Part shown: positions 2,621 to 38,253 of the stretch, piece after piece
Numbering within the stretch: the first letter of the stretch is position 1
How the letters are laid out: each line of letters opens with the position of its first letter
Virus record (IMG/VR): IMGVR_UViG_2778261538_000002
Reading direction: 5' to 3' (one strand)
Length of the DNA stretch: 38,253 nucleotides
Source: a virus
Lineage: Duplodnaviria; Heunggongvirae; Uroviricota; Caudoviricetes
The notes under the pieces: model-generated
The model's database searches: none
What the model was told of the DNA's origin: nothing
What the model saw: the letters and a program-made list of their open reading frames with translations, nothing else
Position numbers and translations under genes: made by a program

Positions 2621-2855
2621 AACTGAAGTTGCCCTGAAAATGAAATTTTTTTGCACAACCGCAGAACTTTTCCGCAGGGCATCAGTCTTAATTAGTGCCA
2701 CTGCTTTTCTTTGATGTCCCCATTTTGTGGAGCCCATCAACCCCGCCATTTCGGTTCAAGGTTGATGGGTTTTTTGTTGCCTTAAATTTATGCCGTTTAA
2801 AATCATGATGTTAGAAGCACTGTTTTTTAACGATGGCGACAAAATGGCGGCAGCG
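2621..2855. other. host-prophage junction; attachment site expected here
   Basis: interval between the ybjL stop and the first phage gene (ogr); exact core repeat cannot be defined because the other att lies outside the window. Confidence 0.4.
2733..2776 (+). terminator. rho-independent terminator downstream of ybjL
   Basis: perfect 10-bp inverted repeat cccatcaacc/ggttgatggg (2733-2742 and 2760-2769) followed by TTTTTT; loop is long (17 nt). Confidence 0.5.
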
Positions 2856-3074
2856 TCAAAGAGAGAGCGCCACCTGTCCTGATTTCATTGGATGCGGCTG
2901 AACCGGATTTGACTCTTTTGGCGTTGCAATCGAACGAACAAAAGTTTCATGGGTAACAAAAGTATGGCTGCAGTTAATGTTCTGGCACTGGTTGTAACGC
3001 TCTTTGGTCAATGAAGATACCTGAAAACTGCTGCGAGTATGGGCGGCACTTCCACACAGTGGGCAAATCATCAT
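2856..3074 (-). CDS. ogr: late gene transcriptional activator (Ogr/Delta zinc-finger family)
   Basis: about 72 aa from the tandem Met; CPLCG...CQNINC four-Cys zinc finger and KERY motif as in P2 Ogr; sits next to gene D as in P2. Confidence 0.8.
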   Translation of the reverse strand: MMICPLCGSAAHTRSSFQVSSLTKERYNQCQNINCSHTFVTHETFVRSIATPKESNPVQPHPMKSGQVALSL

Positions 3075-3164
3075 TTTTCGAGTTCTCCCCATTTTTGCTA
3101 AATTCACAATAATGATACCGCATTATTCCATTTTGCAAACTTAAAAGTTCTCCATTGCGAAGAA

Positions 3165-4265
3165 TCATTCCATTTCGAAATCATCAATCCTCACTTCAAG
3201 TTCCAGACTGGTTGTAAAACCGTTATCCGGGCTGACGGTATGTGTCAGAGTCGTAATGGTCCATTCCGCATCATCTATCGGCTGTTTAAAGCCACTGACT
3301 TTCACAGGCATTTCCGTATAAAGATCTGCCCGTCCTTCTGCCAGTTGCAGCGAGAATGACGCAACGCCGCGTTGCAGGCGTTCCCACTGCATTTTTGCCG
3401 CTCGTTCGGCGTTGCTCCGGTTGGCATAAGTGCGATTAAGTACCAGCACGTTTTCATCCGTCCCCACCAGGTAATCGCCCTGCTTCGCTTCCGGCTCTTT
3501 CTTCTGCTTCTTGGTCCTGCGCTTACGCTTCACCGTTGTGTTTTCTTTCTTCGCGGGTTCACGGGTATGCAACCAGCTGGCAATGACGCCCGTGTAAGCT
3601 CCGCGATCCGCCAGGGTAAAGCGGTGACTGTCGCCGTCCTTACGTGTGATAGTGATCACCGGCAGAGGTTTACCGCTGGCACTTTTACCCTGACCCTGCA
3701 GGATGAATAACAGATTGCCATTTTTCACCGACGCAATAGCACCGTACTGGCGCGCCAGCCGCATCAGAAAACTGCCGTCACTCTCATTAGTCTGGTCTAT
3801 ATGATCCACGGGTTTATCAGACAGGTCTTTACCCAGTGCCATCTTCAGTTTGTGACGCGCAGCTATTTCCTTCACCACTTCCCCGACAGTGGTCTTGTGC
3901 CACGATTTTTCACGACGGGTATTCAGCGTTTCCCTAAAATCAGCACTTCGCGCCCGGATAGTCAGGCGATCCGGTGCGCCAGTGTGTTCAATCTCGTCCA
4001 CCGTGAATGCCCCTTTCGGGAAAAGCGGCTGCCCTTTCCAGCCCAGCGCCAGCGTAATAACCGCACCACGACGCGGCAGCACGATTTTTCCGTCGGCATC
4101 ATCCAGTTCCAGATCAAGCTGGTCCGCTTCAAAGCCCCGGTTATCCGTCAGCGTCAGCCCCATCAGGCGGTTGTCCAGCACAGTAGTGATATCTCTGCCC
4201 TCAATACTGATGCTGAATGCGGGAGTTTTGTTGCCTTTGTTAAGCAGTTCAGAGCTGAAATTCAC
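3165..4265 (-). CDS. D: tail protein D (late control gene D)
   Basis: 366-aa ORF, last gene of the tail operon, recognised as P2 gpD-like; stop of U abuts its start. Confidence 0.88.
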   Translation of the reverse strand: MNFSSELLNKGNKTPAFSISIEGRDITTVLDNRLMGLTLTDNRGFEADQLDLELDDADGKIVLPRRGAVITLALGWKGQPLFPKGAFTVDEIEHTGAPDRLTIRARSADFRETLNTRREKSWHKTTVGEVVKEIAARHKLKMALGKDLSDKPVDHIDQTNESDGSFLMRLARQYGAIASVKNGNLLFILQGQGKSASGKPLPVITITRKDGDSHRFTLADRGAYTGVIASWLHTREPAKKENTTVKRKRRTKKQKKEPEAKQGDYLVGTDENVLVLNRTYANRSNAERAAKMQWERLQRGVASFSLQLAEGRADLYTEMPVKVSGFKQPIDDAEWTITTLTHTVSPDNGFTTSLELEVRIDDFEME

Positions 4266-4747
4266 GACAGCAGCCCTCCCACCGTTTTACTGATATAGCT
4301 TAAGGCAGACGTTGCCGTGTCCTGCAGATTATTCAGTTGCGCACTAAGATCACCGAACATATCGGACAGGGATTCATCCACCCGTTTGAGCGACAAAGTG
4401 AACTCAATCCGGCGCGGCATACCATCGCGGAAAAACTCCGTTTTAGTCTGATTCAGTCCCTCAATCACATACATGCCGTAAATCGTGCCGCTGCCTTCAA
4501 TCAGAGGCCATGCTTTCCCCTGTTCTGCCATCTGCTCCAGTGCCAGCAACGACAGCCTGCCACCTGTTATCTCCGGCATAAGAACACCGGAAAGTGTCAG
4601 CATGTCGTTGTCCGGTCCCAGAAACTGCGTGGACGGACGTCGGTTTACCCGGCTGTTAGCCACATGTCGCCAGCTGCGTTGATACTGCAGTTCCTGATAC
4701 GGAACGGTGCGCAGCATAAACACGTACAATCCCAGCACCATCATCAT
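4262..4747 (-). CDS. U: tail protein U
   Basis: 161-aa ORF; start overlaps the T stop (ATGA); P2 gpU-like. Confidence 0.85.
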   Translation of the reverse strand: MMMVLGLYVFMLRTVPYQELQYQRSWRHVANSRVNRRPSTQFLGPDNDMLTLSGVLMPEITGGRLSLLALEQMAEQGKAWPLIEGSGTIYGMYVIEGLNQTKTEFFRDGMPRRIEFTLSLKRVDESLSDMFGDLSAQLNNLQDTATSALSYISKTVGGLLS

Positions 4748-7700
4748 GCGTCGTATCCCCCCTGATCGCTGTAGTTACTCCTGGCTTTTGCCTTCAGCCT
4801 GCGTTCACGTTCATCAAGCTGGCGTGCCACCTCCCGCGCAATATCCTGCGCACTTTGTCCTGGCTGCGTCTGGATGATGATCTGCGTCGGTGCCTCAATC
4901 CGGTGAACGGGCGGCACAGTAGCTGCGCGACTCACCATCGCTTTGCCGCCTTTCGCGGGAAGCGCCAAAGGATGCAACGGTGGAAGCTCTGCTGGCGCGG
5001 CAGCAACGCCCATCATTCCGGCAACAACGGCAGCCAGTGCAGCTGTATTTCTCCGGCTGGTCACATTTGCCGGGCCGTTAACAATTTCCGGCCCGTTTTC
5101 ACCGACGATGCCAAACTGCCCGCGCGGGATATACCCGCCGCTGTCATACATCCCCGCAAAGCCATATCCCCATGACGGAAAACCACCCGATGGCATCATC
5201 ACTTTGCCGTCTGCATTCACCGTCGCAGGTTGCTGACGCGTCACGCTTTCCGGTAGTTTTGCCTTTGCGGCCTCTTTACTGACAATGCCGAGTTTCTCCA
5301 GCAACCAGGAAACGCCGGATTTCAGGGAGTCCAGCGGATGCATGACCATATTCAGCCCTTCCGCCAGTGCCTCCCCGAATCGTCGCCCCATTGCCGCTGC
5401 GCTCTGCAGTTCGGCAGAGGTCGACTTAACGGGCGTCAGCAGATCAGTAAACCAGCCCCACAGAGCCTGCACTTTGTCACCAATCCACTGAAACACGGGC
5501 TTAAGTGGTTCGAATGCGGCACTGATGGGACCTACCGCCGCTTTGAGTCCTTCCACCACGCCACCGAGAAATGCGGTGATGGGTTGCCAGTATTTCCAGA
5601 CAACCAGCGCCACGCCCGCCAGTGCAGTAACCACAAGACCTATCGGACTGAGCAGAGCACCTAACAGACCAGATATGGCATACAGGGCAACGCGCAGCAT
5701 CACCAGCGGACCGGATGCCAGCACTCGCAACACTGCACCTGCGGCAGTCAGTCCACCGCGCAGTGCCGCCAGTGGATTCATAAACATCAAGGCAACAGCA
5801 CGTAAACCGGATAAACCGGACCGCAACAGTGCAACAGGCGCAGCTGCCACAGTTTTCAGGGCATTTCCCGTCAGTGATGCCGTGCGGCGCAAAGACAACA
5901 GCGGCGCAGTAAGCAAACCCGCACTGCTCCCCGATGAAGCAAACCCGCGTCGCAGCACTGCCAGTGGCGCGCCTGCCAGCCTGGATAACGCGCTGCTGGT
6001 TCGTGTTACTGCATCCGTCACCGAAGGTAACGTCTTGATACCCAGCACAGAGAATCCCAGACGGATGACTGCCAGCGGCCCCAGCACTGCAGCCAACACC
6101 ACAGCCAGGGTGCCGAGGCCCACGGTAACCGCAGCCACAACAGCGGCTACTTTCATCAGTGTGCCCGTCAGTTCCGGGTTAGCTTCCACCCAGCGACGCG
6201 ACGCCCCCGTGACGCTTTTCACCATGTACAAAATATCCATCAGCGGCTGGCGCAGCGTTTCGCCCAGGCTGCTGAAGGTGTTCTGCGCTCCGGTTTTGAC
6301 CAGCAACCACTGCGCAGAAAGTGAATCCTTGTTAATGTCGGATTCTTTCTGCATGGAGCCGAGCGCATCATTGCCCGCTGTCAGTTTTAGCTGGCGCTGC
6401 AGTTCCGGCAGGTTGTTTGCCAGTTTCGCCGCGTCATCGCCAAACTCTTTACCAAACAACATGGTCATGGCAGACAGGCGCTTATCCTGCGGAAGCGCAT
6501 TCACCTTCTCCAGTACGCGCTGGATGGTTCCCATCGCATCCTTCGTCATCTGCTTTTCAATCACTTCAGGATTGAGTTTCAGCAGATTCATTCCTTCAAA
6601 GAAACTCTTGCTCTGCATGGTGGCAATGGACAATTCACGCACCATCGCGTTTGCTGCACTGGCTGCAACCTCCGGCGCAGCACCCAGTGTCAGGAAGGTT
6701 GAACCCAGCGCCGCCGCTTTACGATAATCCAGACGGTCAGCCACACCGCCCAGGCGTTGCATGACATCAATGATGTCTGCCCCTTTCGACATGGCGTTAT
6801 CATCCAGATAGTTCAGCGCGTCACCGAGCTGTTCAATATTGCGGGTAGGGATTTTGTAGAGCTGGGCGATTTTCCCCAGACTTTCTGACAGTTCATCCGC
6901 TGGCAGCTCAAAGGCTGTTGCCGCCTTTGCTGCCGTGCTGGCGAAGGCCAGCAGGTCACGTTTCTGGTCTTCCCAGCTGTCGTCAGGGTTTGCGACGTTC
7001 ATGCGCGCACCACCTTCAACCAGTGCAGCGAAATCCACCGCACCGTTTTCCATCGGCAACTGTTCGCTGGCAGCCTTGATGGCATCCTGCATTTCATAAA
7101 AACGTGCAGTGCGGTTGCCATTATCGTCACGCAGACCATTGACCTGCTTTGCCACACCTTTCATGGCATCTTCCATGCTGGTATAGCTTTTTACTGCCGC
7201 CATCACTGGTGCGCCCATTGCCAGCCCTGCAGCCGTGGTGGTGGCTCCTGCACCTGCAATACGATCACGCACCTCCAGTGAACGAGCATAACTGGCACGC
7301 GCCGCATTCATCCTGCGCTGAGCTTCCCCCAGTCGCTTCAGCCGCGCCTCCTGTTTCGACAATTCCTGGTTATAACGTGATGTTTCACGTGCTAAACGGG
7401 CAGTTGCTCCCGCATCATCTTTCGCAGAAATTCCCGCCCGGTACAGTTCTGCACGCACAAGCGCCGTTTGCTTCTGCAAATATTTTTGTTGTTCTTCCAG
7501 GCGTTGGACTGCCAGCGTTTGCCGACCTAAAGCCACAAGGTGCCGTTGTGATGGTTGTTCCATCGCTTCCAGCTCAGAACTAAGCAAATTTGCCTTCTGT
7601 CTGGCATAGTTCAGCCTGTCGCCTAACTTTTTGTTATCGGCCTGCAGCTTGCGAAATTTTTCCAGGCTGTTACCCGCCTGATTGAGTTGCTTTAATGCGT

Positions 7701-7821
7701 CACGGGAGTTTCTGATTGCGCCAGCCAGCTCTTTCGAACTGGCCTGTGCAGCACGAAATGGGCGGGTGAGCTTGTCAACCGCATTCAGAATCACCTGCAG
7801 ACGCAGGTTATTGTCACTCAT
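4744..7821 (-). CDS. T: tail tape measure protein
   Basis: 1025-aa ORF, N-terminal coiled-coil, Ala/Gly-rich hydrophobic repeats; position between E/E' and U. Confidence 0.9.
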   Translation of the reverse strand: MSDNNLRLQVILNAVDKLTRPFRAAQASSKELAGAIRNSRDALKQLNQAGNSLEKFRKLQADNKKLGDRLNYARQKANLLSSELEAMEQPSQRHLVALGRQTLAVQRLEEQQKYLQKQTALVRAELYRAGISAKDDAGATARLARETSRYNQELSKQEARLKRLGEAQRRMNAARASYARSLEVRDRIAGAGATTTAAGLAMGAPVMAAVKSYTSMEDAMKGVAKQVNGLRDDNGNRTARFYEMQDAIKAASEQLPMENGAVDFAALVEGGARMNVANPDDSWEDQKRDLLAFASTAAKAATAFELPADELSESLGKIAQLYKIPTRNIEQLGDALNYLDDNAMSKGADIIDVMQRLGGVADRLDYRKAAALGSTFLTLGAAPEVAASAANAMVRELSIATMQSKSFFEGMNLLKLNPEVIEKQMTKDAMGTIQRVLEKVNALPQDKRLSAMTMLFGKEFGDDAAKLANNLPELQRQLKLTAGNDALGSMQKESDINKDSLSAQWLLVKTGAQNTFSSLGETLRQPLMDILYMVKSVTGASRRWVEANPELTGTLMKVAAVVAAVTVGLGTLAVVLAAVLGPLAVIRLGFSVLGIKTLPSVTDAVTRTSSALSRLAGAPLAVLRRGFASSGSSAGLLTAPLLSLRRTASLTGNALKTVAAAPVALLRSGLSGLRAVALMFMNPLAALRGGLTAAGAVLRVLASGPLVMLRVALYAISGLLGALLSPIGLVVTALAGVALVVWKYWQPITAFLGGVVEGLKAAVGPISAAFEPLKPVFQWIGDKVQALWGWFTDLLTPVKSTSAELQSAAAMGRRFGEALAEGLNMVMHPLDSLKSGVSWLLEKLGIVSKEAAKAKLPESVTRQQPATVNADGKVMMPSGGFPSWGYGFAGMYDSGGYIPRGQFGIVGENGPEIVNGPANVTSRRNTAALAAVVAGMMGVAAAPAELPPLHPLALPAKGGKAMVSRAATVPPVHRIEAPTQIIIQTQPGQSAQDIAREVARQLDERERRLKAKARSNYSDQGGYDA

Positions 7822-8250
7822 GGCTGGCCCCGCTTCTCTGAATCGCTTTATACCGCCATTCCAGCACTTCGGTCAGCGGCATAACGTCAGTAACGGATGG
7901 CGGCCAGTGAAAGATGGTGGCGATATCAGCCACCAGATCGTCAACCGTCAGGCTGTCGGTAAACCGGCAAGCACCGACTTCTTCAACAAAAAAGTGACAA
8001 CCTCAACCGACATGGCAGTGAGATCTGCCGGGTCCATCTCTGCAATTTCCTGTGCAGTCAGTGCCGGACTGGAAATGCGGGGGATCACGGTCATCATCGC
8101 GTTCACATCCATATCCATAATGGCCTGCAGGCGTGTACCGCGCAGCGCACCAGACTGCGGTTTACGCAGCACAATTTCGGTGATTTCCGTTTTACCGCGC
8201 TTGATAGGGGTATCCAGTTGAATGGTCTTTTCAGTCTGCTTATCACTCAT
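7814..8250 (-). CDS. E+E': tail assembly chaperone E+E' (programmed -1 frameshift product)
   Basis: slippery heptamer TTTTTTG on the - strand (forward 7987-7993); hand translation of the -1 frame gives an open extension ending TGA at 7814-7816 that overlaps the T start (ATG at 7821). Confidence 0.65.
7948..8250 (-). CDS. E: tail assembly chaperone E
   Basis: 100-aa ORF between FII and T; P2 gpE-like. Confidence 0.85.
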   Translation of the reverse strand: MSDKQTEKTIQLDTPIKRGKTEITEIVLRKPQSGALRGTRLQAIMDMDVNAMMTVIPRISSPALTAQEIAEMDPADLTAMSVEVVTFLLKKSVLAGLPTA

Positions 8251-8304
8251 TTTTCTGTCCTGTAAATTGGGTTCTGGCGCGGCATTCCGCGCCGTTCAGA
8301 TACA

Positions 8305-8820
8305 TCAGAGGCCGAGGGCGTTGCGGTGCGCTTCCATCAGGTCCACTCCGTCCACAATTTCCACCATGTTGATAAGGTCCACTTCATAGAGCACCTCACC
8401 ATTGATGGTCAGCTTCGCGTAGCTGTTGGTACTGGTCACTTTGGTGGTGTTACTTTCGCCCGTCTTCCACTCGCCGGAATCCACTTCTTTGTGACGACCA
8501 CGCACCACAAGCTCCACGGCCTGCACTTCCCCGGTATCGTCACGCTGGATAGAGCCGGTAAAGCGCAGCTGGATGCCATCCACAGTGGCTTTGCCCATCT
8601 GCTTAAACAGCAGCAGTTCAGTACCACCAATGGAAAATTCTGTGTCCAGCGCGCTGTCATCAAGCCCCAGATCCACATCCACTGCACCCGGCATTCCGCC
8701 GCCGCGATACTTCTCATATTTGCGGGTGAATTTCGGCAGCGTCAGCGATTCAACGATCCCCTGCCAGTTGTTCCCCTCGTTAAACAGGTTCAGGTGTTTT
8801 AATTTGCGTGGTAAAGCCAT
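8305..8820 (-). CDS. FII: major tail tube protein
   Basis: 171-aa ORF directly downstream of the sheath gene; P2 FII-like. Confidence 0.88.
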   Translation of the reverse strand: MALPRKLKHLNLFNEGNNWQGIVESLTLPKFTRKYEKYRGGGMPGAVDVDLGLDDSALDTEFSIGGTELLLFKQMGKATVDGIQLRFTGSIQRDDTGEVQAVELVVRGRHKEVDSGEWKTGESNTTKVTSTNSYAKLTINGEVLYEVDLINMVEIVDGVDLMEAHRNALGL

Positions 8821-8829
8821 GTTGTCCCC

Positions 8830-10002
8830 TTACGCGCTGACCTGGCTGGCAAAATTCACCAGGTACTGATCGGTGATGCGCTGACGCAGCATCAGATTTT
8901 CAAGTGGCGGCACTGGCGTGTAGTCATAGTCGATGGTGAGTTTTCCGGCTTTCAGCGTGTCTTTGTCGTTCACCGACTCATCCAGCCAGCAATCACCACC
9001 AATGAGATAGCCCTGACTGACCAGGCTGCGCATTTTGGCGCGAATACCTTCGATAATGTCGCGGGCCAGCGACGGGTTAAGCGGTTTGTCCACCGCCCAC
9101 ATGTGCGCTTCTGCCATCGTGTCCATCAGCACCTGCGCCGTGCGGGTGTAGTTCTCAAAGGCAAAAAGCGGATCATCACTCAGACAGCGGGAACCCCAGA
9201 AGCGAAAACCGTCTTTGCGGATAAGCGTGGTAACGTCGTTCTGGTTAAGCAGACCTGCATCGGTTGCCGGGTCTTGCAGATCCCAGAACACATCAGCAGA
9301 AATTCCGGTGACACCGTTCACGCCCACGTTGGACAGGCTTTTGTGCCATCCGGTCTGCTCGTCAATTTTGGCGCGCAGGCCAAGCGCACGCGCGGTGGCA
9401 TATGCCGTTGCTTCGGTATTCAGCACCGTGTCCCAGCTGATAAAATCCGGCCAGATCAGCATCCCTTCACGCTGACTGAAGTTTTCGCGGTAGGTAAGCA
9501 CTTCTTCCACTGTTTTGCAGCCATACGCCGACAGGTAAGCAAACCCGCGCAGGCTTTGCGCCACGCTCAGCAACTCAGTCGCAACGGCTTTGTTATCGTG
9601 ACCCGGCACGCCGAGAATGCGCGGTTTAACGCCGAGCTGTGACTGGGCAGATAACAGGGCTTTCATGCCTGTTTTTTTACCTTCAGCAGTCACTGCGCCG
9701 ATGATATTGGTTGTGGTTTCTTCTTCCGTTTCACCCTGCGGCACACGCACAACAACGGTCACGGGTTTTGCCTGGTCAGCGATGGCATCCAGCGAACGGG
9801 CCAGCGTGCCGGACTCACCCGCTTTACCGCTGGCAGTCAGTACATCAGTGATCAGCACGGGTTTATTAAGAGGAAACATTTTTGCATCGGCATCATCGCC
9901 CGTGCAGACCATACCCACGATGGCGGTGCTCACCGTGGTAATGGATCGGGTGCCTTCGTTGACTTCAACAACGCGCACCCCGTGGTGGTAATCCTGAGCC
10001 AT
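8830..10002 (-). CDS. FI: tail sheath protein
   Basis: 390-aa ORF; P2 FI-like; first gene of the FI-FII-E-T-U-D operon. Confidence 0.9.
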
Positions 10003-14508: not shown

Positions 14509-14556
14509 GAGAGCGATCCTTGCACAACCGGGTAGAGTGATGTAATACAGAGCGTA

Positions 14557-26704: not shown

Positions 26705-26735
26705 GCGCGCTCGTATCCCCGCCACGCCTGCCCGC
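26705..26735. other. putative cos site (cohesive end)
   Basis: - strand reads GGCGTGGCGGGGATACGAG; the first 13 nt match the P2/186 cohesive-end sequence as I recall it (GGCG[A/T]GGCGGGGAAAGCA). Confidence 0.5.
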
Positions 26736-27872: not shown

Positions 27873-27882
27873 AAAAGTCACC

Positions 27883-28071: not shown

Positions 28072-28099
28072 TTTTCCTCCTATGACACCACAAGCAATA

Positions 28100-28130
28100 C
28101 TGTACACATAACCACTATTTATATTTACAG
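28100..28130. promoter_or_regulatory. putative LexA (SOS) operator overlapping the promoter of the tum-like operon
   Basis: CTATTTATATTTACAG (28115-28130) is one mismatch from CTGT-N8-ACAG; adjacent CTGTACACATAACCAC is a weaker site; TTTACA -35-like element on the - strand. Confidence 0.45.
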
Positions 28131-28224
28131 TATATAATAATCTTACTGATGTAAAACGTTTTTTTACGCTCATCAGCCTGATATGCCTGGTATTATTAAG
28201 AGCACGAATTGTTAACCCGCGTAA

Positions 28225-30639
28225 TTAATACAGGTTCCGCCATTTATCATCCTCCTGCAGACGCTGGTTCCGATAGAAGATACGCAGGCCTGCTTCTGAC
28301 GGAATACTGCCGCCGCGAAGGAGTAAATCGACCTCTTTCTCGCTGCCATCAAATCCTCTGGACTTCAGCTCATAGACGAGCTGCAGTCGTTGATGGTCTG
28401 TAATTCGCTGTTTGTAGTCTTTACGCCGTATCGGTTTAACCAGGCGTAACCTTGCAGCCAGTTCCCGGCGCTCTTTTTTGCTCATACTGTGCAGGTAATC
28501 GTGCAACTCCTTGTCATCCATGCGGGTAATGTCCGTTCTGGTGTCCCCATCAGCTGATTTATCTTTCTCCTGTTGGTTCAAATTTTCAGCAAGGGGACAG
28601 TTATTGCCACGAGTCCAAGGGGCGCAAGCGCCCTGGTCGGCTGCCGCCTCCTGAACGTCAACGGCCTTACGAACCATTTTCCACTTCACGGCATGAGTGC
28701 AGATCTTGCCCTCTGCAATGGGTGACCAGATGCCATAAATACGAATGCCGTGATCGCCATAGGCGGTCGGCTCTTCGTTAATTTCATAAGCGGTTCTGAT
28801 GAGGTGATATTTGCGGGGAACCAGTACGCCGCCCTGCTTCATGATGTAGGTGGCAAAACAACCAGCATCAGCAGCAGCCAGGATGGCATCAAGGCGCGGG
28901 TTATCCAGTACCGGCGCACCTGCTTTTTTGTCGCCCTGTTGCCTTGCCGCCTGACCAGCCAGCAATCGCAGTTCACGGTAAGCCTGACGCCCCGGAATGC
29001 CAAAGAAGCGGAATTGCTGAACACGATGCAGAGACGCCCAGGCATTAACGTATTCAGCGTTATCACGCAGGGATTTACCCGTTTCCTTACTGATCTCGCC
29101 AGCCAGACCACGCCCGTCAATGTTCTTACTGATGTATTTCGCGATGTAGCTTGTTGGCGTACCTTTGCGCGGGTTTATCAGCTCAGACTTAAAGCGTGGT
29201 CCCGTGTTATTACCCAGCTCCTCGCGGTCTTCACGAATGGCAAACTTACGCAACAAAGCAGTAATGGCGCGGCGATCTTTTTTGCGCATAAAACACAACA
29301 GGTGCCAGTGAACTGTACCGTCATGATGCGGCTCAGCCACCCGCACGCCATACCAGCGCAATCCGGCTTTGTGCATCGCCTTACGAAATGCAGCAAACAT
29401 GCCGACCAGATAATCACTGCTTTGTCTTACCGTCGCATTTGTCCAGGTCGGGTTGGGCCTGCCGTTATTTAGCGTGGAATGGAAACGTGACGGACAGGTG
29501 ATGGTGTAGAAAACGGCGCAGTCACCGCGCATTTCCGCGATAAGCTCCAGACCTTTAACACAGGCCATCATCTCATTGCGGCGATGCGCAGGGTTGCTGC
29601 TGCTGGCGTTTACCACATCCTCCATGTCCAGCGTGTCGCCGTCTTCGTTCACCAGTTCATGAGAACGGAAAAACTCCAGCGACTTACGGCGCTGCTCACG
29701 TTTATGCATCACGGCTTCATAGCTGACATAGGGAGATGCTTTTTTGCTGACCAGGCAAACAGCACGCAACTGCTCTTCCCGCCATTCGCAACGCATCTTC
29801 CATAATTTCCGGTACCACCAGTCGGCGCACAACATACGCGCCAGCGAACCCGGAATGAGTTCATAGGGCACGGGTTTACGGCGGTTTCTTTTCCGGCGGA
29901 GTTGCTCAAACGCAGGCGGTATGACATCCAGTCGCAGGGTTTCTGCTGCCACCTTTTCCCATGTCTTGCGGATTTCTTCTGGCTTAACATCATCGGTGGC
30001 GTACAAATCACCACAAGCGGCATCAAGACACATGCTCATATGCGCAGCGACAAGAGTAGACAGGCGTTTCACCTGATCCTGACTCATTTCAGGCAAGTTC
30101 AGCAGGCCGTCCAGCCCTTCATGGCTTGCCATAAAGCGAAAAGAAGTGGATAGCTGACTCTCGCGTACATGCTCCAGTCGTTCCAGACATGGCTTAATCG
30201 TCTCACGCAAATAGCGGGAATAAGCCTTTGGCCTGCCCAGGCTGCTGAAGTATTCAATACGTTGCATCAGCGGCTTGCTGATATGGGAAGGCTGGGCGTT
30301 AACGTCCGCCAGTATGACCATGTCCGGATTAAAACGCTGCTGCTCATGCGCCAGCTTTGCCCGGCTAATGAGCTTATCCTGCTCCATTTCGCGTTGGACA
30401 GGATCACGGGATTCATTAAAGAAATAACGCTCCCAGACCTGATCACTCAGTGCCTCGAGGCGCAGTTGTTCCTGCTCGTTATCGGCAGCGTACAGAGTGA
30501 TCAGGTTTGAAAGCGCAGAAACCGGCGCAACTTCCGCCGGGTCCAGATAAGGGTTAATAGCCTTTTTCGGGCTGTTCCATGAGAATGCTGCGGCGGCCTC
30601 GTTAAAGCCGCTGCAGTTGTTCATATCAGCATGGCTCAT
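28225..30639 (-). CDS. A: replication initiation protein A (rolling-circle nickase)
   Basis: about 804 aa from the ATG at 30639 (ORF track begins at an upstream TTG); HUH-type [10 protein letters not shown] motif and tyrosine pair YIAKYISK; ATGA-coupled to dam. Confidence 0.88.
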
Positions 30640-31493
30640 GCACGCACTCCGTACACGACGGAACAATCCACGCCACGCGAAGGATCAAATCCTACCCAGC
30701 AGCGCGGCCCGGAAACAGCGATGATTTCTGTTGCAGATTTACTCTCACCAGCTGCCACGCCGATGCTGCGTTTTGCCTTGATGTAGTGGTGAGTAAAATT
30801 GCGATACAGCGAACGGATCAGGGATGTGTCACTGTTAGAAACAATGACCGGATGTCCTTCTGATGACCGATGTTCAAGAACGGATGCCAAGTGATACTGG
30901 TCATCTTCAGTGAAGCCGTCAGTGTGATAGCCGGAAAACGTACCGTCATAAGGCGGATCGCAATACACCACATCCCCCGCCTTCAACATCGCCAGCGTTT
31001 CATCAAAGCTTGCGCAGATAAACGTTGCCCGCTGGGCTTTCTCTGCAAATGCGCGAATTTCTTTTTCAGGGAAATACGGATTTTTATAATTACCGTACGG
31101 AATGTTGAAATGCCCGCTCTTGTTATAGCGACATAACCCACGGTAACCATGACGATTGAGATACAGGAAATATACCGCTTTCATGAAATCAGTAATTTCA
31201 GTGGAGTAATTAAACTCCTGCCTTATGTTGTAATAAGCCACCTCCCTGTTTGCTTCCTCAAATAAAGCTCTGGCACGAGATATAAACGCCTCGCAATCAG
31301 CAGCAACCTTTTTATAGAGGTTGATTAAATCAGGATTAATATCCGCAACAAGATAGCTGGGGTAATCCGTCTCCATCATCACAGCACAGGAACCCGCGAA
31401 AGGTTCAACCAGTCGCGGGCCTGCAGGAAGATGTTTTTTCAGTTCGGACATAATGGCGGTTTTATTTCCCGCCCATTTCAGGATGGTGCTCAT
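30636..31493 (-). CDS. dam: DNA adenine methyltransferase (Dam-like)
   Basis: ORF 30636-31553 trimmed to Met21 ([11 protein letters not shown]); motif [10 protein letters not shown] and motif IV DPPY. Confidence 0.85.
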
Positions 31494-31717
31494 ACAACAC
31501 CTCCGTTGTAATGTTTGCCTTTCAGCTCTGCGATTTCCTGACAGGTAATGCAAAGCTGCACTCCAGGAATGGCGCGGCGTCGTGCTGGCGGAATTGGCGC
31601 TTCACATTCAATACAAAGCACACGAGACACGCCCGGTGTTTTGGCACGGGCAGCACGGATATAGCGCTGGCGTTCTTCTTCAACGCGCTGCTGTACGAGA
31701 TCCATTGCATCAGCCAT
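31490..31717 (-). CDS. DksA/TraR-family C4 zinc-finger protein
   Basis: 75 aa; CIECEAPIP...CITCQE zinc finger; position equivalent to P2 orf82. Confidence 0.75.
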   Translation of the reverse strand: MADAMDLVQQRVEEERQRYIRAARAKTPGVSRVLCIECEAPIPPARRRAIPGVQLCITCQEIAELKGKHYNGGVV

Positions 31718-31956
31718 TAGTGGATCTCCTGCGCTTCGTTCTGGATTGCTTCAGCAGTCACACGCAGCAGTTCTGCCGCTTCGACGTGGTTTAGCTGGCG
31801 GGATGTGATATGACACGCCAGGCTATCAAGGCGAGCTGCCATTGCTTCAGCCCTTGCCCGGCGTTCTTCCAGACGAGCCTCTGTCAGTAAAATATTAAGC
31901 CCTGCATCATCCGGTCCGGTTTTAGTCGTGAGGGTTTCAATATTACGCATAATCAA
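31717..31956 (-). CDS. hypothetical early protein
   Basis: 79-aa ORF, coiled-coil-like, coupled to the downstream gene. Confidence 0.5.
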   Translation of the reverse strand: MIMRNIETLTTKTGPDDAGLNILLTEARLEERRARAEAMAARLDSLACHITSRQLNHVEAAELLRVTAEAIQNEAQEIH

Positions 31957-32017
31957 TTCTCCTGAATTTAGATAAATGGATGCCCGGCGGGTTTACGCCA
32001 TTAATTTCATTAGTTGC

Positions 32018-32359
32018 TTAATTCGGCATGGTTAGCCGTCTGGGAAATAAGCTCACCACTGCACGAAAATGATTCATTGCTTTAATCAACTCCCGCTTTT
32101 CGTCAGTGGTCAGCTCATTAATGCTGATGCTATGACGTTCAGCTGGAATTTTTGCCATAAAGAATATGGCAGCCAATGCCCGTTTATTTTGTTCATTATT
32201 GATATCCCGTGGATCACGCATATCTTTAATAAACCGCTCAAGCTCTGACTCAATATTCAGGCCAAATACTTTCGCCCTTAATTCTGCAATGTGATTAAGT
32301 CCATTCAGGCGTTCACCGGGGCTTAATGGAACAGTCGCCGCAGCGCCATTAATTGCCAT
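32018..32359 (-). CDS. hypothetical early protein
   Basis: 113-aa ORF in the early operon; not recognised. Confidence 0.5.
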   Translation of the reverse strand: MAINGAAATVPLSPGERLNGLNHIAELRAKVFGLNIESELERFIKDMRDPRDINNEQNKRALAAIFFMAKIPAERHSISINELTTDEKRELIKAMNHFRAVVSLFPRRLTMPN

Positions 32360-32381
32360 ACTTCATATCCCCCAAACGCAC

Positions 32382-32606
32382 CTATCGTTCTTTGTTCTTA
32401 CGGTAACGCTCAAGGGGAGATACATTTTTTCGTACCGTCTCTTTAACCTGCTCTCCCCGTAAAAACGTCCCATCCTTTAGCGTGAAAAAGTAACTGCCAT
32501 CGCCCGACAACGACGGATAACAACAGAGCAAATCATCTTCAGGTACTGAATAACTCTCCCCTCTGTAACAAAACTGATAAACCACTTCACTTTCCGCTGC
32601 ATACAT
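32382..32606 (-). CDS. hypothetical early protein
   Basis: 74-aa acidic ORF; protein-like composition. Confidence 0.5.
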   Translation of the reverse strand: MYAAESEVVYQFCYRGESYSVPEDDLLCCYPSLSGDGSYFFTLKDGTFLRGEQVKETVRKNVSPLERYRKNKER

Positions 32607-32773
32607 TTTGACTTTCTCCGTTTCCTCGTGGTCAATTCAGACAGCAATTCATCTTGTGAATGACATGGATGCCAGCGTTTTCCATCCTCACCCATGATCC
32701 AGCCGTGACCGTAGTGCATTGCCGGGCTTTGTTTTACCAGCAGCGATGCAAATGATGGTTCTTTCGACAGCAT
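32477..32773 (-). CDS. hypothetical early protein (possible fil/dhr-region gene); 3' part doubtful
   Basis: ORF 32477-32803 from Met11; N-terminal about 55 aa look protein-like, the remainder overlaps the 74-aa ORF out of frame. Confidence 0.3.
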   Translation of the reverse strand: MLSKEPSFASLLVKQSPAMHYGHGWIMGEDGKRWHPCHSQDELLSELTTRKRRKSKCMQRKVKWFISFVTEGRVIQYLKMICSVVIRRCRAMAVTFSR

Positions 32774-32780
32774 AAGCACC

Positions 32781-33290
32781 TCACAGCAAACCGAATGAAG
32801 CACCGAGGCCAGTCACGGTATCAACCGCACTCGCCATCGCAGGGTTAGCCTGTAAACGGGCCTGCAATGAAACAGCAGCCAGCGCCATCAGTCGTGTTAC
32901 AGAGTTAATGCTGCTGATGGCATCACGACGACCTGCACTGGTTTTTACATCGCCAGATACCGCACCTGCAGCAACACGCCCGATCTCTGCGGTTGCACTC
33001 ATGACGTAATGTGGCAGTTTCTCTTTTGCCACCTCATTAATCGGCACACATGGCAGACAATGAATCTGAGCCAAAAAACCATCTACCAGCGTCGAATCTT
33101 CAGTCAGATCGGTAAGCAACCAGATTTCTGGTGCGGTTAATAAATGAGGTTGAGCTGGGTTCAGCTTGTTCCGCAGGATCTGCACATTCATGCCTGCACG
33201 TTCTGCCAGTTGCACCAGGTTGTGGCGCAGTGCGAATGCACGACAGGCTTCATCAAAATGTGGATGTTTGGAAACTTGGTAATCAAACAT
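32781..33290 (-). CDS. cII: CII-like lysogeny establishment protein
   Basis: 169 aa from Met19 ([20 protein letters not shown]...), nearly identical to coliphage 186 CII as I recall it. Confidence 0.85.
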
Positions 33291-33322
33291 AGTCGCCCCT
33301 CTTGATGTACCCCAAAATGGAA

Positions 33323-33544
33323 CTAGTTGAATACAACATTGCAATCAGTAAGTGCATCAACGGTAAGAGCAGCAAGGTTGATCATTACCTTTTCCCTTTT
33401 CTTGTCTTTCCGAAGGCGATGGCGAGGGATGCGACCATCTGCCAGCATATCGTTGATTGTGTCGATTGAAAGGCCAGTAAGTTCGCTATAACGCTCGATT
33501 GTGACGTGTGGCGTATTCAGAGTTATTGAAATGTTAGGTGTCAT
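33323..33544 (-). CDS. apl: Apl/Cox-like excisionase-repressor
   Basis: 73-aa HTH protein, first gene of the lytic operon, divergent from the repressor gene. Confidence 0.75.
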
Positions 33545-33632
33545 GATGCAACATCTCCTTTTAGCTTGTGGTGAGCTGGTTTTAATCGTGATAACAACAT
33601 CACAAAACGGAGAATAGGTTCACATAACGAAC
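33545..33632. promoter_or_regulatory. lysis-lysogeny switch region (pR/pL and operators)
   Basis: 88-bp interval between apl and the repressor gene; architecture by analogy with 186; individual promoters not resolved. Confidence 0.5.
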
Positions 33633-34583
33633 ATGTCAACTCAAAAATTCACATTTCGCCATATCAAAGAGGATGCGAAAGCCATTGTTATGCAGAATCG
33701 TGGGGGACAGAAAGTCATTGAGCGAATACTCAAAGCTTATGGCTTCAAGTCACGCCAAGCGTTCTGTAACCATCTTGGTATTTCACAAAGTACGATGGCC
33801 AATAGATATGCTCGCGATACATTTCCTGCTGATTGGGTTGTTATATGCTCAATGGAAACAGGAGCATCTTTGGAATGGCTGGCGTTTGGTTCTGATGCGG
33901 CAGAAGAAATACTCTCAACTGCTCCAAATGGATACAACGAAGACGACCAGCGAGATGACGTTGAAAGTGACAATCATATACCTTCCTTTAATTTTCATAA
34001 TGATCATCAAGTCGATTTCAATCAGGGAGGAAAAGCGGCAATAGAACGGATAGTTAAGGCTTATGGCTTTAAAACTCGTCAAGCACTGGCAGATCATCTT
34101 GGTATATCAAAAAGTACATTAGCTACACGCTATATGCGTGACTCATTCCCTGCTGATTGGATAATACAGTGTGCCCTTGAAACTGGATTCTCATTGAAAT
34201 GGCTTGTTGATGGGCAAGGACTTAATAAAAGTTCACAAAATGAAAACATTGTGTGCATAAACAAGTACGTGCTTGCCGATGGTGCACTCGAAATGAAGGG
34301 TAACTACATTTTTGATAAGTCCTTTGTACCTAAGTCGATTAAAGATCCAATGTTAATATTTGATGGCAGCAGGATATACTTAGCTGAGGGGAACTTTGAC
34401 GAAATTAGCGATGGATTGTGGTTTGTTGAAATTGAAGGAAAAATCAGTGTTCGCGAGGTAATAAGAATACCGGTAGGTAAAGTAAGAGTAACGAGCTCAA
34501 ACTCAAATATTACTTTTGACTGTGCAATTAATGAACTCAAACCGGTTGCAAAATGCCAGTTCAACCTAATGACTATAATATAA
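33633..34583 (+). CDS. cI: CI-type immunity repressor with duplicated N-terminal HTH domain
   Basis: 316 aa; two tandem copies of a 186-CI-like HTH module (ERILKAYGFKSRQAF...HLGISQSTMANRY..FPADW and ERIVKAYGFKTRQAL...HLGISKSTLATRY..FPADW) plus a CI-like C-terminal domain. Confidence 0.8.
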   Translation: MSTQKFTFRHIKEDAKAIVMQNRGGQKVIERILKAYGFKSRQAFCNHLGISQSTMANRYARDTFPADWVVICSMETGASLEWLAFGSDAAEEILSTAPNGYNEDDQRDDVESDNHIPSFNFHNDHQVDFNQGGKAAIERIVKAYGFKTRQALADHLGISKSTLATRYMRDSFPADWIIQCALETGFSLKWLVDGQGLNKSSQNENIVCINKYVLADGALEMKGNYIFDKSFVPKSIKDPMLIFDGSRIYLAEGNFDEISDGLWFVEIEGKISVREVIRIPVGKVRVTSSNSNITFDCAINELKPVAKCQFNLMTII

Positions 34584-34614: not shown

Positions 34615-35733
34615 ATGTCTAGAAGTTTTGCTATTTGGGGATGCCGAAACTACGCTAAAGGCCCAGGAGAGGATTATAATGAGACTCAAGCAGATTTTAT
34701 AAACGAACTACACATCAACTTTTGGAATATCACATCCCAAAAATGCTATCATCTAGATTTTGGCATATCATTTTCTCGCCCCCAAGATAATGAAATTTCA
34801 GAACAGGGTGCAATCTGTTTATTTTTACCGTTTGTAAAAGAAAAAGATGACTTCATTGATTTAAGTACGAACCTAGATAGCAGCAAAGAACTGATCACCG
34901 CGGTTTTTAATGAATACGTCATAAATAAAGACTCAATAAACGAGAAACACTTATTATTAAATTTAACACGAAAAGGTAAACTAATAGTTAATACAAAACT
35001 TGATTTTCAAGGGGGGGCATTCGACAAAAGAATCACATTGAGAAAGAGGAATGATGGGACATATGTATTTTTCCATCTGCAGGATTGTTTGTCTAATTGC
35101 AATAATTGCAATTACTACATCAGATTCAGAATTAACCTAAATGAATCTGATGTTGAAGCAATTGTTAAAACATTCTATCCAAAAGATTTATTCTTAAAAA
35201 GCAATATTGAACGTTCTGATATTATAGATTTCAGAATTAACGAACAAAGAAATTTGCCAAACGAAGTCGCAACCACACTGGCCAGCGCCTCTTGCACTCC
35301 AAGCAAATATCATTTTTTCGTTATACGAGATATGGTTGACGAAGCATCGGCATCAGGTTCAAGCTATCAAGGTTGTCGTATTCTTGAATCAGAGACATGG
35401 AAAAAATACTTTTCAAATAATGTCAATTTTGGTAAGAACGATCCTATGATTTACCACTGGAAAGCTAAAAAGGATGATGGCGCACGGCTAGGTGACTTCT
35501 CTGTAGTAGTGAAGTTCAAGACTACTAAATCAAAAATTAGTAAAATATTTACATATATGTTCTATGCTGCAGCCATAGCATACATAATGAAATTTATTCC
35601 AACAGATGGTGTGCATAAAGACATTTATCTAATTTGCACCATTGCATTTATTGTAGCTTACATTGCCGCTCACTTTATTAAACCACAAAAATTATCCAAC
35701 TTTATTGCACTGGTGAAAAAATGGAAAAATTAA
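34615..35733 (+). CDS. hypothetical protein with C-terminal transmembrane helices (cargo gene 1)
   Basis: 372 aa; large soluble N-terminal region, two hydrophobic helices near the C-terminus; AT-rich; 32 nt after the cI stop. Confidence 0.7.
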   Translation: MSRSFAIWGCRNYAKGPGEDYNETQADFINELHINFWNITSQKCYHLDFGISFSRPQDNEISEQGAICLFLPFVKEKDDFIDLSTNLDSSKELITAVFNEYVINKDSINEKHLLLNLTRKGKLIVNTKLDFQGGAFDKRITLRKRNDGTYVFFHLQDCLSNCNNCNYYIRFRINLNESDVEAIVKTFYPKDLFLKSNIERSDIIDFRINEQRNLPNEVATTLASASCTPSKYHFFVIRDMVDEASASGSSYQGCRILESETWKKYFSNNVNFGKNDPMIYHWKAKKDDGARLGDFSVVVKFKTTKSKISKIFTYMFYAAAIAYIMKFIPTDGVHKDIYLICTIAFIVAYIAAHFIKPQKLSNFIALVKKWKN

Positions 35734-36800
35734 AACACATTCAGTTTAATGAAGTTAATTTTAACGATGTTTTTTTTGACTCCTTAAAAAAAGACTATCA
35801 ACATGGATTTATCGATTGGTTCAATAAAAAATGTAATTCTATCGAAGAAAAAGCTTATGTCTTATATAATGATGACAACACAATTGATGGTTTTTTATAC
35901 TTGAAAATTGAGCGTGGTATTATTGACGACGTAATACCACCTTTGACTCGTGCTAAACATCTAAAAATAGGCACATTTAAATTCAACCCGAAGGGGACTC
36001 TACGAGGACAAAGATTCCTCAAAAAGATTTTTGATCATGCACTAAAAGAAAAAGTAGATGATATCTATGTGACTGTTTTTGAAAAACATGATTATTTAAT
36101 TAGACTATTCAAAATTTATGGTTTTATTCATGTTGCTACAAAACAAACTGCTAATGGTAGTGAACAAGTCTTAGTAAGAGAGATGAATAAAAATCATCTT
36201 ACAGGGGATATTTTGTCTGATTATCCGTATATAAATAATAGCAACGATGAAAACAAATATCTGTTATCCATATATCCTGAATTCCATACAAAACTGTTTC
36301 CTGATTCGATACTCACCACAGAGTCCCCTGATATAATCACGGATGTATCTCATGCGAATAGCATTAGAAAAATATATATATGCAGAATGCATGACGTAAA
36401 AAAAATAAAAAGACATGACATTTTAGTTATTTACAGAACAAGTGACAAAGAAAACAGAGCGTATTATCGCTCTGTCGCAACGTCATTATGTGTAGTTGAA
36501 GATATTAGACATATTGATTCTTTTTATAGTGAAAAAGAATTCATACAGTATTGTACACGATACAGTGTATTCTCTGAAAATGAATTAAAAAAATCCTATC
36601 AAACAAAAAGATACCCTTACATTATTAGTTTTACATATAATCTAGCTTTACCTAAAAGAATAAACCGTGCTAAACTAATCAAAGAAATTGGTTTAAATCC
36701 TAAAAACCGTTGGGGTGTTGTTAAATTAACCGATGAGCAATTTGACGATATAATTAAACTTGGTGCTGTAGATGAAAGTATTATTGTCAATAAAACCTGA
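35721..36800 (+). CDS. hypothetical protein, N-terminal GNAT-like fold fused to an unknown C-terminal domain (cargo gene 2)
   Basis: 359 aa; N-terminal 150 aa have GNAT-like topology (…KIGTFKF…RGQRFLKKIF…YLIRLFKIYGF…); overlaps neighbouring genes at both ends. Confidence 0.65.
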   Translation: MEKLKHIQFNEVNFNDVFFDSLKKDYQHGFIDWFNKKCNSIEEKAYVLYNDDNTIDGFLYLKIERGIIDDVIPPLTRAKHLKIGTFKFNPKGTLRGQRFLKKIFDHALKEKVDDIYVTVFEKHDYLIRLFKIYGFIHVATKQTANGSEQVLVREMNKNHLTGDILSDYPYINNSNDENKYLLSIYPEFHTKLFPDSILTTESPDIITDVSHANSIRKIYICRMHDVKKIKRHDILVIYRTSDKENRAYYRSVATSLCVVEDIRHIDSFYSEKEFIQYCTRYSVFSENELKKSYQTKRYPYIISFTYNLALPKRINRAKLIKEIGLNPKNRWGVVKLTDEQFDDIIKLGAVDESIIVNKT

Positions 36801-37143
36801 ATTTGTTGAAAAAATCCTTAATGGGACGAAGAAGTTTGAATTCAGGAAAGGTATTTTTAAAAAACCGGATGTAAAATCTGTGGTTATTTATTCAACAATG
36901 CCTGTCGGTAAAGTTGTTGCTGAATTTGACATTGCAGATGTTATAGAAGATAAGCCGAGTATTGTATGGGAAAAAACAAGCCAATACGCAGGTATCAGTA
37001 AACAATTTTTTGACTCTTATTTTCATAGCAAAGAAAAAGCCTTTGCTATAGAAATTGGTAATCTAAAAATCTATGACCAACCACTTCATCTAAGTTCATT
37101 AGGTGATAACATAACGGCCCCGCAATCATATCGGTACTTATGA
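36772..37143 (+). CDS. ASCH-domain protein (cargo gene 3)
   Basis: 123 aa; MKVLLSIKPEFVEKILNGTKKFEFRK is a typical ASCH N-terminus. Confidence 0.7.
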   Translation: MKVLLSIKPEFVEKILNGTKKFEFRKGIFKKPDVKSVVIYSTMPVGKVVAEFDIADVIEDKPSIVWEKTSQYAGISKQFFDSYFHSKEKAFAIEIGNLKIYDQPLHLSSLGDNITAPQSYRYL

Positions 37144-37221
37144 TGTATGTAACCTTAAGCATCATACATTGACACTGGTTATATATACAGTAAAAATGCT
37201 CTCCACTGGAGGGCATTTTTT

Positions 37222-38253
37222 ATGGCAGTACGAAAACTCACCACAGGAAAATGGCTTTGCGAATGTTACCCCGCCGGACGTAGTGGGCGTCGTGTGCGTA
37301 AACAATTCGCCACCAAAGGCGAAGCTCTTGCTTTTGAGCGTCACACGATGGAAGAAACTGAATCAAAGCCCTGGCTGGGCGAATCAGTGGATCGTCGAAC
37401 CCTGAAAGACGTGGTTGAGCTATGGTTCAAACTACATGGTAAATCTCTGACTGCTGGGCAGCATGTCTATGACAAATTGCTGCTGATGGTTGACGCTCTG
37501 GGCAATCCCCTTGCAACCGATCTCACATCTAAAATGTTTGCCCATTATCGAGATAAACGACTGACAGGTGAGATCTACTTCAGCGAGAAATGGAAGAAAG
37601 GAGCCAGCCCGGTCACCATTAACCTGGAGCAAAGCTATCTAAGTAGTGTTTTTAGCGAACTATCCCGCCTGGGCGAATGGACGTATCCGAACCCACTGGA
37701 GAACATGCGAAAATTCACCATCGCAGAAAAAGAGATGGCATGGCTTACCCATGAGCAGATTGTTGAACTGCTGGCTGATTGCAAACGTCAGGACCCAATT
37801 CTGGCTCTGGTAGTCAAAATATGCTTAAGCACAGGCGCACGCTGGCGAGAAGCCGTAAATCTTACCCGCTCACAGGTGACCAAATACCGAATTACCTTTG
37901 TAAGAACGAAGGGGAAGAAAAACAGAAGCATCCCTATCAGTAAAGAGCTTTACGAAGAGATCATGGCGCTTGATGGGTTCAATTTCTTCACAGACTGCTA
38001 TTTTCAATTTTTATCCGTGATGGAAAAAACGTCTATCGTGCTCCCTCGCGGTCAACTGACACACGTTCTGCGCCATACGTTTGCGGCGCATTTCATGATG
38101 TCGGGTGGAAATATCCTTGCTTTGCAAAAAATCCTCGGACATCACGACATAAAAATGACCATGCGTTACGCACATCTGGCACCGGATCACCTGGAAACTG
38201 CATTACGGTTTAATCCGCTGGCAACACTACCAACATCAACAGCAACTGTTTGA
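37222..38253 (+). CDS. int: tyrosine integrase
   Basis: 343 aa; C-terminal catalytic region HVLRHTFA...LGHHDIKMTMRYAHL; stop at the window end. Confidence 0.92.
   Translation: MAVRKLTTGKWLCECYPAGRSGRRVRKQFATKGEALAFERHTMEETESKPWLGESVDRRTLKDVVELWFKLHGKSLTAGQHVYDKLLLMVDALGNPLATDLTSKMFAHYRDKRLTGEIYFSEKWKKGASPVTINLEQSYLSSVFSELSRLGEWTYPNPLENMRKFTIAEKEMAWLTHEQIVELLADCKRQDPILALVVKICLSTGARWREAVNLTRSQVTKYRITFVRTKGKKNRSIPISKELYEEIMALDGFNFFTDCYFQFLSVMEKTSIVLPRGQLTHVLRHTFAAHFMMSGGNILALQKILGHHDIKMTMRYAHLAPDHLETALRFNPLATLPTSTATV

Follow-up and report, generated by a model that had tools for sequence, protein, structure and literature searches.

A P2-family prophage of the Klebsiella phage 4LV2017 lineage at the rybB terminator of Escherichia coli, and its accessory genes

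The stretch of DNA considered here, IMG/VR virus record IMGVR_UViG_2778261538_000002, is 38,253 nucleotides (nt) in length (hereafter the window) and, from just past the host gene ybjL to its final base, it is occupied by a P2-family prophage of ~35.5 kb. We are strongly of the view that this region is a temperate prophage belonging to Peduoviridae, the P2 family, and that its place is in the lineage which includes Klebsiella phage 4LV2017 (Elveevirus) and E. coli prophages inserted at the same site. An earlier note on this DNA had likewise recognised a complete-looking temperate P2-family prophage beside ybjL, and that much is borne out, as the core genes are full length and ybjL encodes 561 amino acids (aa), as in K-12. 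Its proposal that the element is a mosaic of phages P2 and 186 is another matter. Identity, boundaries, gene content, synteny and domain content can be read directly from the DNA and its comparisons, and they describe a complete-looking member of an already catalogued P2-family lineage at a known, very common attachment site; the only unusual content of this otherwise ordinary prophage is its accessory genes, probably with an anti-phage role.

What is the element related to? Among phage records, megablast gave its best matches to 4LV2017 (NC_047818; Peduoviridae, Elveevirus) and to numerous Klebsiella prophages, Kp48xx included; these matches cover 86% of the late region and 54% of the early region at ~95% identity. 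In a blastn comparison 4LV2017 accounts for 76.4% of the prophage with 95.0% identity, whereas alignable DNA amounts to 22.1% for P2 and 23.4% for 186, in both cases with ~68% identity and without a high-identity tract. At the protein level the core is 92-100% identical to its 4LV2017 counterparts, and most core proteins are 87-100% identical to those of the same-site prophages of E. coli E9 and Ecol_542, all being full length except for the tail-fibre tip; divergence from the E9 and Ecol_542 proteins is larger for the tail-fibre chaperone G, the orf62 protein and the CI repressor. The late proteins, which together with ogr had been taken to be of P2 sequence type, are 39-68% identical to those of P2 and 186 alike, with no systematic preference. 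Nor does the lysis cassette turn out to be of P2 type, since its holin (HP1 family), its lysozyme (Pfam Phage_lysozyme) and the protein encoded at the lysA position have no tblastn match in either P2 or 186. As little DNA is alignable to either of those phages, as the late proteins are equidistant from them and as the lysis genes match neither, the element is a third, separate Elveevirus-like lineage and not a P2/186 mosaic. A recent recombination event, in which P2 late genes became joined to the early and immunity region of 186, would account for the P2 gene order, including a lysA-position gene that 186 lacks, and for early genes of 186 type (CII 69%, Fil 60% and Int 55% identical). We nevertheless regard it as very improbable, given the equal distance of the late proteins, the lysis genes of neither type, the small and uniformly diverged fraction of alignable DNA (22-23% at 68%) and a whole backbone that is collinear, at 95% identity, with 4LV2017 and E. 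coli prophages. CII itself, which had been described as almost identical to 186 CII, is 68.6% identical to it over 172 aa.

In taxonomic terms, the alignment to 4LV2017 does not reach the threshold for the same species (>=95%), and against the ~95% species criterion for Eganvirus ev186 or Peduovirus P2 there stand aligned fractions of 23% and 22%, respectively, at 68% identity. Among complete E. coli genomes the best match is strain E9, in which 82% of 14000-38253 is covered at 96.4% identity; the whole element is present in none of the complete E. coli genomes searched.

For the boundaries, the window was compared with the empty K-12 site, both Ecol_542 junctions, the right junction of L011, a relative with 97% identity, and the annotated attL and attR of 4LV2017. 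The left 2.8 kb is E. coli chromosome, as judged from its open reading frame (ORF) map, annotated E. coli relatives and Rfam, and it carries grxA (1-258, plus strand), ybjM (288-665, minus strand) and an intact ybjL (935-2620, plus strand) that is 99.8% identical to the Ecol_542 copy. Beyond ybjL lies intact rybB, a gene for a sigma-E-dependent small RNA (2700-2778, plus strand; Rfam RF00110, 105.3 bits, model positions 1-79 of 79), and the match to K-12 in this stretch is exact through 2778. Host DNA thus reads through GGTTGATGGGTTTTTTGTT to 2778 and the first phage base is 2779, so that, though the element that the earlier note began at 2621 is real, its left boundary had taken in 158 nt of host DNA. 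The attL core, ATGGGTTTTTTGTT (2765-2778), is the last stretch in common with the empty K-12 rybB-rcdA site, as seen also from Ecol_542, L011 and 4LV2017, and in some lysogens the common stretch extends to as much as 26 nt. This core comprises the T-run of the rybB terminator and the 3' half of its stem, and because it lies within that terminator the target is rybB and not anonymous intergenic DNA; insertion after ybjL with ybjL undisrupted had been correctly noted, while the plain intergenic target had not. Integration would involve tyrosine-integrase recombination between attP and the ~14-nt core in the rybB terminator, between ybjL and rcdA, with phage-supplied replacement sequence such that rybB would be left intact at attL. 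In the attR of relatives a phage-borne stem, CCCATTTACATAAATGGG, rebuilds a hairpin. The att core, whose identification had been deferred until a right junction became available, is accordingly found at the left junction, while attR lies beyond the window, the last base of which (38253) is also the end of the int stop codon. A ~270-nt ORF follows int in E9 and Ecol_542, and its counterpart probably lies just outside the window to the right of int; beyond 38253 one would expect that ORF, two copies of the arm-type repeat AACTTATTGTTTT, attR with CATAAATGGGTTTTTTGTT, and then rcdA. A tRNA as integration target was considered and rejected, the window being free of tRNA and tmRNA genes according to ARAGORN. 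The site is a well-used one. Of 5426 complete E. coli genomes, 1105 (~20%) have the same rybB-ogr junction, rybB is the listed insertion site of P2-like prophages of E. coli W, B and Crooks (PMC3032704), and PhiECO1-3, at ~0.9 Mb in E. coli HS, ATCC 8739 and CFT073, occupy one common site and have a 186-type cI (PMC3448106).

The late genes are in exactly the order of P2, as had been stated, from ogr through to P and Q: ogr-D-U-T-E'/E-FII-FI-G-H-I-J-W-V-(orf)-S-R-lysC/B-lysA slot-K-Y-X-L-M-N-O / P-Q, including the gene at the lysA position and the slot between S and V. The gene for the late activator, ogr (2856-3074, minus strand; Pfam Ogr_Delta 5e-22), has a product that shares 55% identity with P2 Ogr and 54% with 186 B. 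The tail operon with D, U, T (tape measure), E', E, FII and FI (3165-10002, minus strand) is full length and 95-100% identical to its equivalents in 4LV2017, E9 and Ecol_542 by tblastn, and within it the E' (7817-7933) and E (7948-8250) ORFs, both on the minus strand, are accompanied by a TTTTTTG slippery site. It is followed by G (tail-fibre chaperone), H (tail fibre), I, J, W and V (10253-14586, minus strand; Pfam Caudo_TAP, Phage_tail_fib with Gp53-like_C, and Phage_base_V), where the ORF caller over-extends the starts of J and V. Next come S, R, lysC/lysB, the lysA-position gene, K, Y, X, L, M, N and O (15497-21424, minus strand; Pfam Phage_tail_S, Phage_lysozyme, Phage_holin_2_3 and Phage_cap_P2), full length with respect to the relatives; here K encodes the lysozyme, Y the HP1-type holin, N the major capsid protein (Phage_cap_P2 3.5e-152) and O the scaffold, the true start of which is near 21304. 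On the plus strand are P (large terminase) and Q (portal) (21446-24237; Pfam Terminase_5/6N/6C and Phage_portal), with products 63% and 61% identical to P2 P and Q. The P2-type arrangement Q-P / O-N-M-L is therefore present, with capsid, GpO scaffold, GpP/GpM terminase and GpQ portal, as is the full-length contractile-tail and baseplate set V, W, J, I, H, G, FI, FII, E, E', T, U and D. At 26710-26728 on the minus strand a cos-like site, GGCGTGGCGGGGATACGAG, agrees with 186 cos at 15 of 19 positions and with P2 cos at 14 of 19, and the 61 nt that flank it can be aligned with the P2 cos junction at 77% identity (E 6e-8). The identity of the element as a satellite or a tailocin was ruled out by this full set of capsid, packaging, tail, lysis, replication and integration genes.

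How intact is it? The core proteins align end to end with their 4LV2017, E9 and Ecol_542 counterparts, the exceptions being the variable tail-fibre tip and the chaperone, for which a search of phage records gave no full-length match; both tail fibre (Phage_tail_fib with Gp53-like_C) and chaperone (Caudo_TAP) are complete by Pfam. Comparison of the core genes with those three relatives reveals no insertion sequence (IS) element, frameshift, premature stop or deletion. 'Apparently intact' is a fair description of what the window contains, and we infer that it is functional and can be induced.

The early and regulatory layout is of 186 type, and the element has no counterpart of P2 C, cox or B. 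Rightward transcription serves cI and int, and leftward transcription apl, cII, fil and the replication gene A. The repressor gene cI (33633-34583, plus strand) encodes 316 aa with two tandem Phage_CI_repr helix-turn-helix (HTH) domains (PF07022, in two stretches) and a CI_C domain (PF16452), and over aa 137-307 its product is 33.5% identical to 186 CI. The length is due to the tandem duplication of the HTH domain, aa 23-86 and 131-194 being clearly alike in translation. Such long forms of CI are not confined to this element; ~45 sequence clusters of ~290-330 aa, annotated 'phage repressor protein CI', are distributed across Enterobacterales, and the particular allele here was found in no complete RefSeq E. 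coli genome at megablast level. Divergent from cI is an apl/cox-like gene for an excisionase and repressor (33323-33544, minus strand; phrog_575, Cox-like, 9.6e-32), the product of which has no BLAST match to 186 Apl or P2 Cox. Then follows the early operon (28225-33344, minus strand; assigned with Pfam and by comparison with 186), which consists of cII (within 32781-33344; Phage_CP76 4.5e-42), fil (32477-32803; 60% identical to 186 Fil), genes for DUF5347, DUF2732, a TraR/DksA zinc finger and a Dam methylase (MethyltransfD12) within 30636-32359 by Pfam, and the replication initiator gene A (28225-30666; Phage_GPA 8.9e-128), whose product is 35% identical to 186 A and 31% to P2 A. At the other side of cI, int (37222-38253, plus strand; Pfam Int_N and Phage_integrase) encodes a 343-aa tyrosine integrase, with its stop as the last codon of the window, that is 98-99% identical to those of 4LV2017, E9 and Ecol_542, 55% to 186 Int and 35% to P2 Int.

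The 88-nt switch region (33545-33632) falls within the spacer range of 88-125 nt reported for switches of 186 type (PMC3448106). Consensus scans and a repeat search point to a candidate pR with TTGACA at 33639-33634 and TATTCT at 33616-33611, with the direct repeats TCACAAAACG and TCACATAACG (33600-33629), 20 nt apart, on either side of its -10. At the level of consensus, the geometry of these putative operators resembles P2 O1/O2 more closely than the inverted repeats of 186, and direct repeats may suit a single-chain repressor that carries two HTH domains. CI operators of the kind found at 186 pB, common to the ogr promoter and the switch, were ruled out, the two having no k-mer of 8 or more in common. 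Downstream of A is a putative SOS operon (27639-28132, minus strand), in which LexA-like boxes (28098-28132; scores 16/20 and 15/20) precede a 62-aa ORF (27883-28071; phrog_698) and a 77-aa DinI/Tum-like ORF (27639-27872; phrog_189 DinI, 1.7e-30) with 41% identity to the C-terminal part of 186 Tum. SOS induction would presumably proceed via an antirepressor encoded by this small operon. The earlier description of the switch, SOS and replication layout as 186-like holds for the cI-apl-cII-fil arrangement and for a DinI-like gene behind LexA-like boxes, while the N-terminal part of Tum is unmatched.

Several points weigh against an intact, inducible member of the 4LV2017 lineage. The right end, with attR and any gene past int, is beyond the window, so completeness cannot be shown, and that this particular element is inducible is something we infer. 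The closest named relative, 4LV2017, was deposited as attL-to-attR prophage coordinates and is not necessarily a plaque-forming phage. Membership of Elveevirus is marginal, since identity multiplied by aligned fraction against 4LV2017 gives 72.6%, barely over the usual ~70% genus line and calculated in one direction only for an element without its right end. The cos match is to 14-15 of 19 bases only, protein comparison with 186 detected no counterpart of the N-terminal part of Tum, and the first and better of the LexA-like boxes, which in six relatives is canonical (CTGT-N8-ACAG), ends here in ATAG, a CAG to TAG change in this copy only that, to judge from the motif, may weaken LexA control of the putative antirepressor operon. 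Could it then be a cryptic prophage, complete in appearance, no longer induced, excised or packaged, and retained for its cargo? The attR that is not visible and the box change unique to this copy would fit, and with CI 48-57% identical to the CI of relatives and the putative antirepressor operon 97-99% identical (Ecol_542, 4LV2017) a mismatch of repressor and antirepressor is conceivable; moreover, the cargo between cos and Q directly abuts the cos core. However, that placement is a lineage feature, common to 4LV2017, E9, Ecol_542 and seven IMG/VR contigs, int and the element upstream of it (see below) are conserved, and the core genes have no frameshift, stop codon, IS element or deletion relative to the three relatives. 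We consider a cryptic state unlikely, and the prophage of the 4LV2017 lineage, intact as far as the window extends, remains our reading.

Relatives illuminate what is fixed and what is exchanged. 4LV2017 and the related Kp48xx records have a collinear backbone, the same int, the same att core (CAGGCAACAAAAAACCCAT, on the opposite strand) with the same flanking rybB-type host sequence, a long CI (313 aa) with duplicated HTH, and cargo between cos and Q. 4LV2017 differs in its host, Klebsiella and not E. coli, in having a retron (St85-type effector and reverse transcriptase) where the window has an ATPase gene and a SIR2 gene, in having one 349-aa ORF in place of the three-gene cassette considered below, in its empty V-S slot, in its tail-fibre tip and chaperone, and in a CI that is 57% identical. 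The E. coli rybB-site prophages, namely those of E9 and Ecol_542, PhiECO1-3 (Nilsson et al. 2011; PMC3448106) and Rybb*W/B/Cr (Archer et al. 2011; PMC3032704), have the ybjL/rybB-rcdA insertion and the same backbone, and E9 has in addition the same ATPase and SIR2 pair (99.7%) and the same V-S ORF; however, their CI is of ordinary length (189-191 aa), they possess an invertible tail-fibre segment with its recombinase that this element lacks, and between cI and int there is a KAP NTPase gene in E9 and only a 191-nt ORF in Ecol_542. With 186 (Eganvirus) the element has in common the types and order of regulatory genes (int-cI / apl-cII-fil ... A ... LexA-controlled tum), the domain families of CI, CII and Fil, and the absence of the P2 B gene; in contrast, 186 integrates in tRNA-Ile, has no lysA-position gene, has dhr and orf82-84 where this element has the Dam methylase gene, encodes Tum as a single 146-aa protein instead of a 62-aa and a 77-aa DinI-like ORF, and has a CI with a single HTH. 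To P2 (Peduovirus) the resemblance is in late-gene order, Ogr, E/E' frameshifting, a cargo hotspot adjacent to cos (old/tin in P2) and the V-S slot (orf30 in P2); yet P2 C, cox and B are without homologues here, the holin and lysozyme families are different, and while P2 cargo is on the A side of cos, that of this element is on the Q side and its Z/fun slot is empty.

The segments that do not align to 4LV2017 are the tail-fibre tip and four low-GC islands, all of the latter within P2 hotspots already described (PMC9122126, PMC13586616): gpA-gpQ by cos, within the tail genes, and integrase-primase. The island in the V-S slot is an ORF of 304 aa (14556-15470, plus strand; GC 0.43-0.46) that matches phrog_4373 (2.8e-142) and has no match in Pfam, PADLOC, NCBIfam or the Protein Data Bank (PDB); E. 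coli E9 has it at 99.7% identity, and 4LV2017 and Ecol_542 lack it. Between cos and the DinI-like operon a stand-alone ORF of 128 aa with an ASCH domain (27038-27424, plus strand; Pfam ASCH 1.5e-19) is absent from 4LV2017, E9 and Ecol_542. With a DUF8087 gene in its place in E9, the position seems to be one more small slot of variable content.

Between cos and Q is a pair of genes (24267-26589, minus strand) that is convergent with Q, 29 nt from it, and encodes an AbiLi/AAA_21-like ATPase (25360-26589, minus strand; Pfam AAA_21 9e-14, PADLOC AbiLi 2e-51) and a SIR2 protein (24267-25346, minus strand; Pfam SIR2_2 1.3e-8 and PADLOC SIR2 models). The two occur together, always by the portal gene, in seven IMG/VR P2-like contigs, with 51-100% identity, and in one of the 5426 complete E. 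coli genomes. The architecture, an ATPase sensor with an effector, is similar to that of AbiL and PARIS, and the ATPase also matches the AriA model (4e-16). However, the partner is a SIR2 protein whereas in AbiL and PARIS it is a Toprim/DUF4435 effector (AbiLii/AriB), which sets the pair apart from both, and it matches no named PADLOC 2.0 system. PDB sequence searches with the SIR2 protein and the ATPase yielded nothing useful.

The remaining island is within the lysogenic operon, where three overlapping ORFs (34615-37143, plus strand) separate cI and int: X (34615-35733; 372 aa, distinct from the late gene of that name), PDC-M11A (35721-36800; PADLOC M11A 6.7e-139, with GNAT and ASCH-like domains) and PDC-M11B (36772-37143; PADLOC M11B 1.7e-49, with an ASCH domain), all on the plus strand. 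With M11A and M11B models matched on overlapping adjacent ORFs, the latter two constitute PDC-M11, a PADLOC candidate defence system. X has no match in Pfam, PADLOC, NCBIfam, PHROGs or PDB. Its predicted structure (pLDDT 82.5) has a domain rich in beta-sandwich followed by C-terminal helices, two of them hydrophobic enough to span a membrane, and matches in a fold search were weak; a profile search identified 1175 representative relatives, of which ten that were sampled have no Pfam or PADLOC match. Prophages of E. coli and of E. fergusonii type have the same X-M11A-M11B order, with X 60% identical, and it is found even in distant metagenomic contigs (L017-L021) where X is 25-29% identical and the A and B products still match the PADLOC models. 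To judge from this recurring order, PDC-M11 seems to include a third, conserved gene for which PADLOC 2.0 has no model.

What might such a cassette do? That cI-X-M11A-M11B-int represents an uncharacterised three-component defence cassette expressed from the lysogenic operon is a tentative idea, and one of which we are more doubtful than persuaded. ASCH proteins include the N4-acetylcytidine (ac4C) amidohydrolase YqfB and proposed tRNA ac4C erasers (PMC6972931; bioRxiv 10.64898/2026.02.27.708502). The domains of M11A and that of M11B suggest an acetylation writer and eraser pair. Speculatively, M11A, with GNAT fused to an ASCH-like RNA-binding domain, might be a writer acting on RNA or nucleotides, M11B, with the fold of YqfB, might be its eraser or antitoxin, and X, as a membrane-anchored beta-sandwich protein, might be a sensor or effector.

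As a prophage call the element carries little weight, P2-family prophages at rybB being present in ~20% of complete E. coli genomes and the attachment site and cargo hotspots already published. What is of more use is, first, a set of corrections to annotation, namely that the target is the rybB terminator, that the lineage is Elveevirus-like in place of a P2/186 mosaic and that the HTH of the repressor is duplicated, and, second, the leads provided by putative defence cargo: a third PDC-M11 gene not yet modelled, and an AbiL-like ATPase with SIR2 instead of a Toprim effector. A further lead is a LexA-box-like promoter element before int that is conserved across the lineage. This stretch (37169-37221, plus strand) has TTGACA and, at 37173-37192, a LexA-box-like sequence of the form CTG-N10-CAG, CTGGTTATATATACAG, with 17 of 20 positions as in the consensus, followed by a 9-bp hairpin that takes in the int ribosome-binding site, a T6 run and then the ATG. 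By its motifs int may be under SOS or attenuation control, and the element is retained in seven related loci, including those of 4LV2017, Ecol_542, E9, A30 and E. fergusonii-type relatives, whatever separates cI and int.

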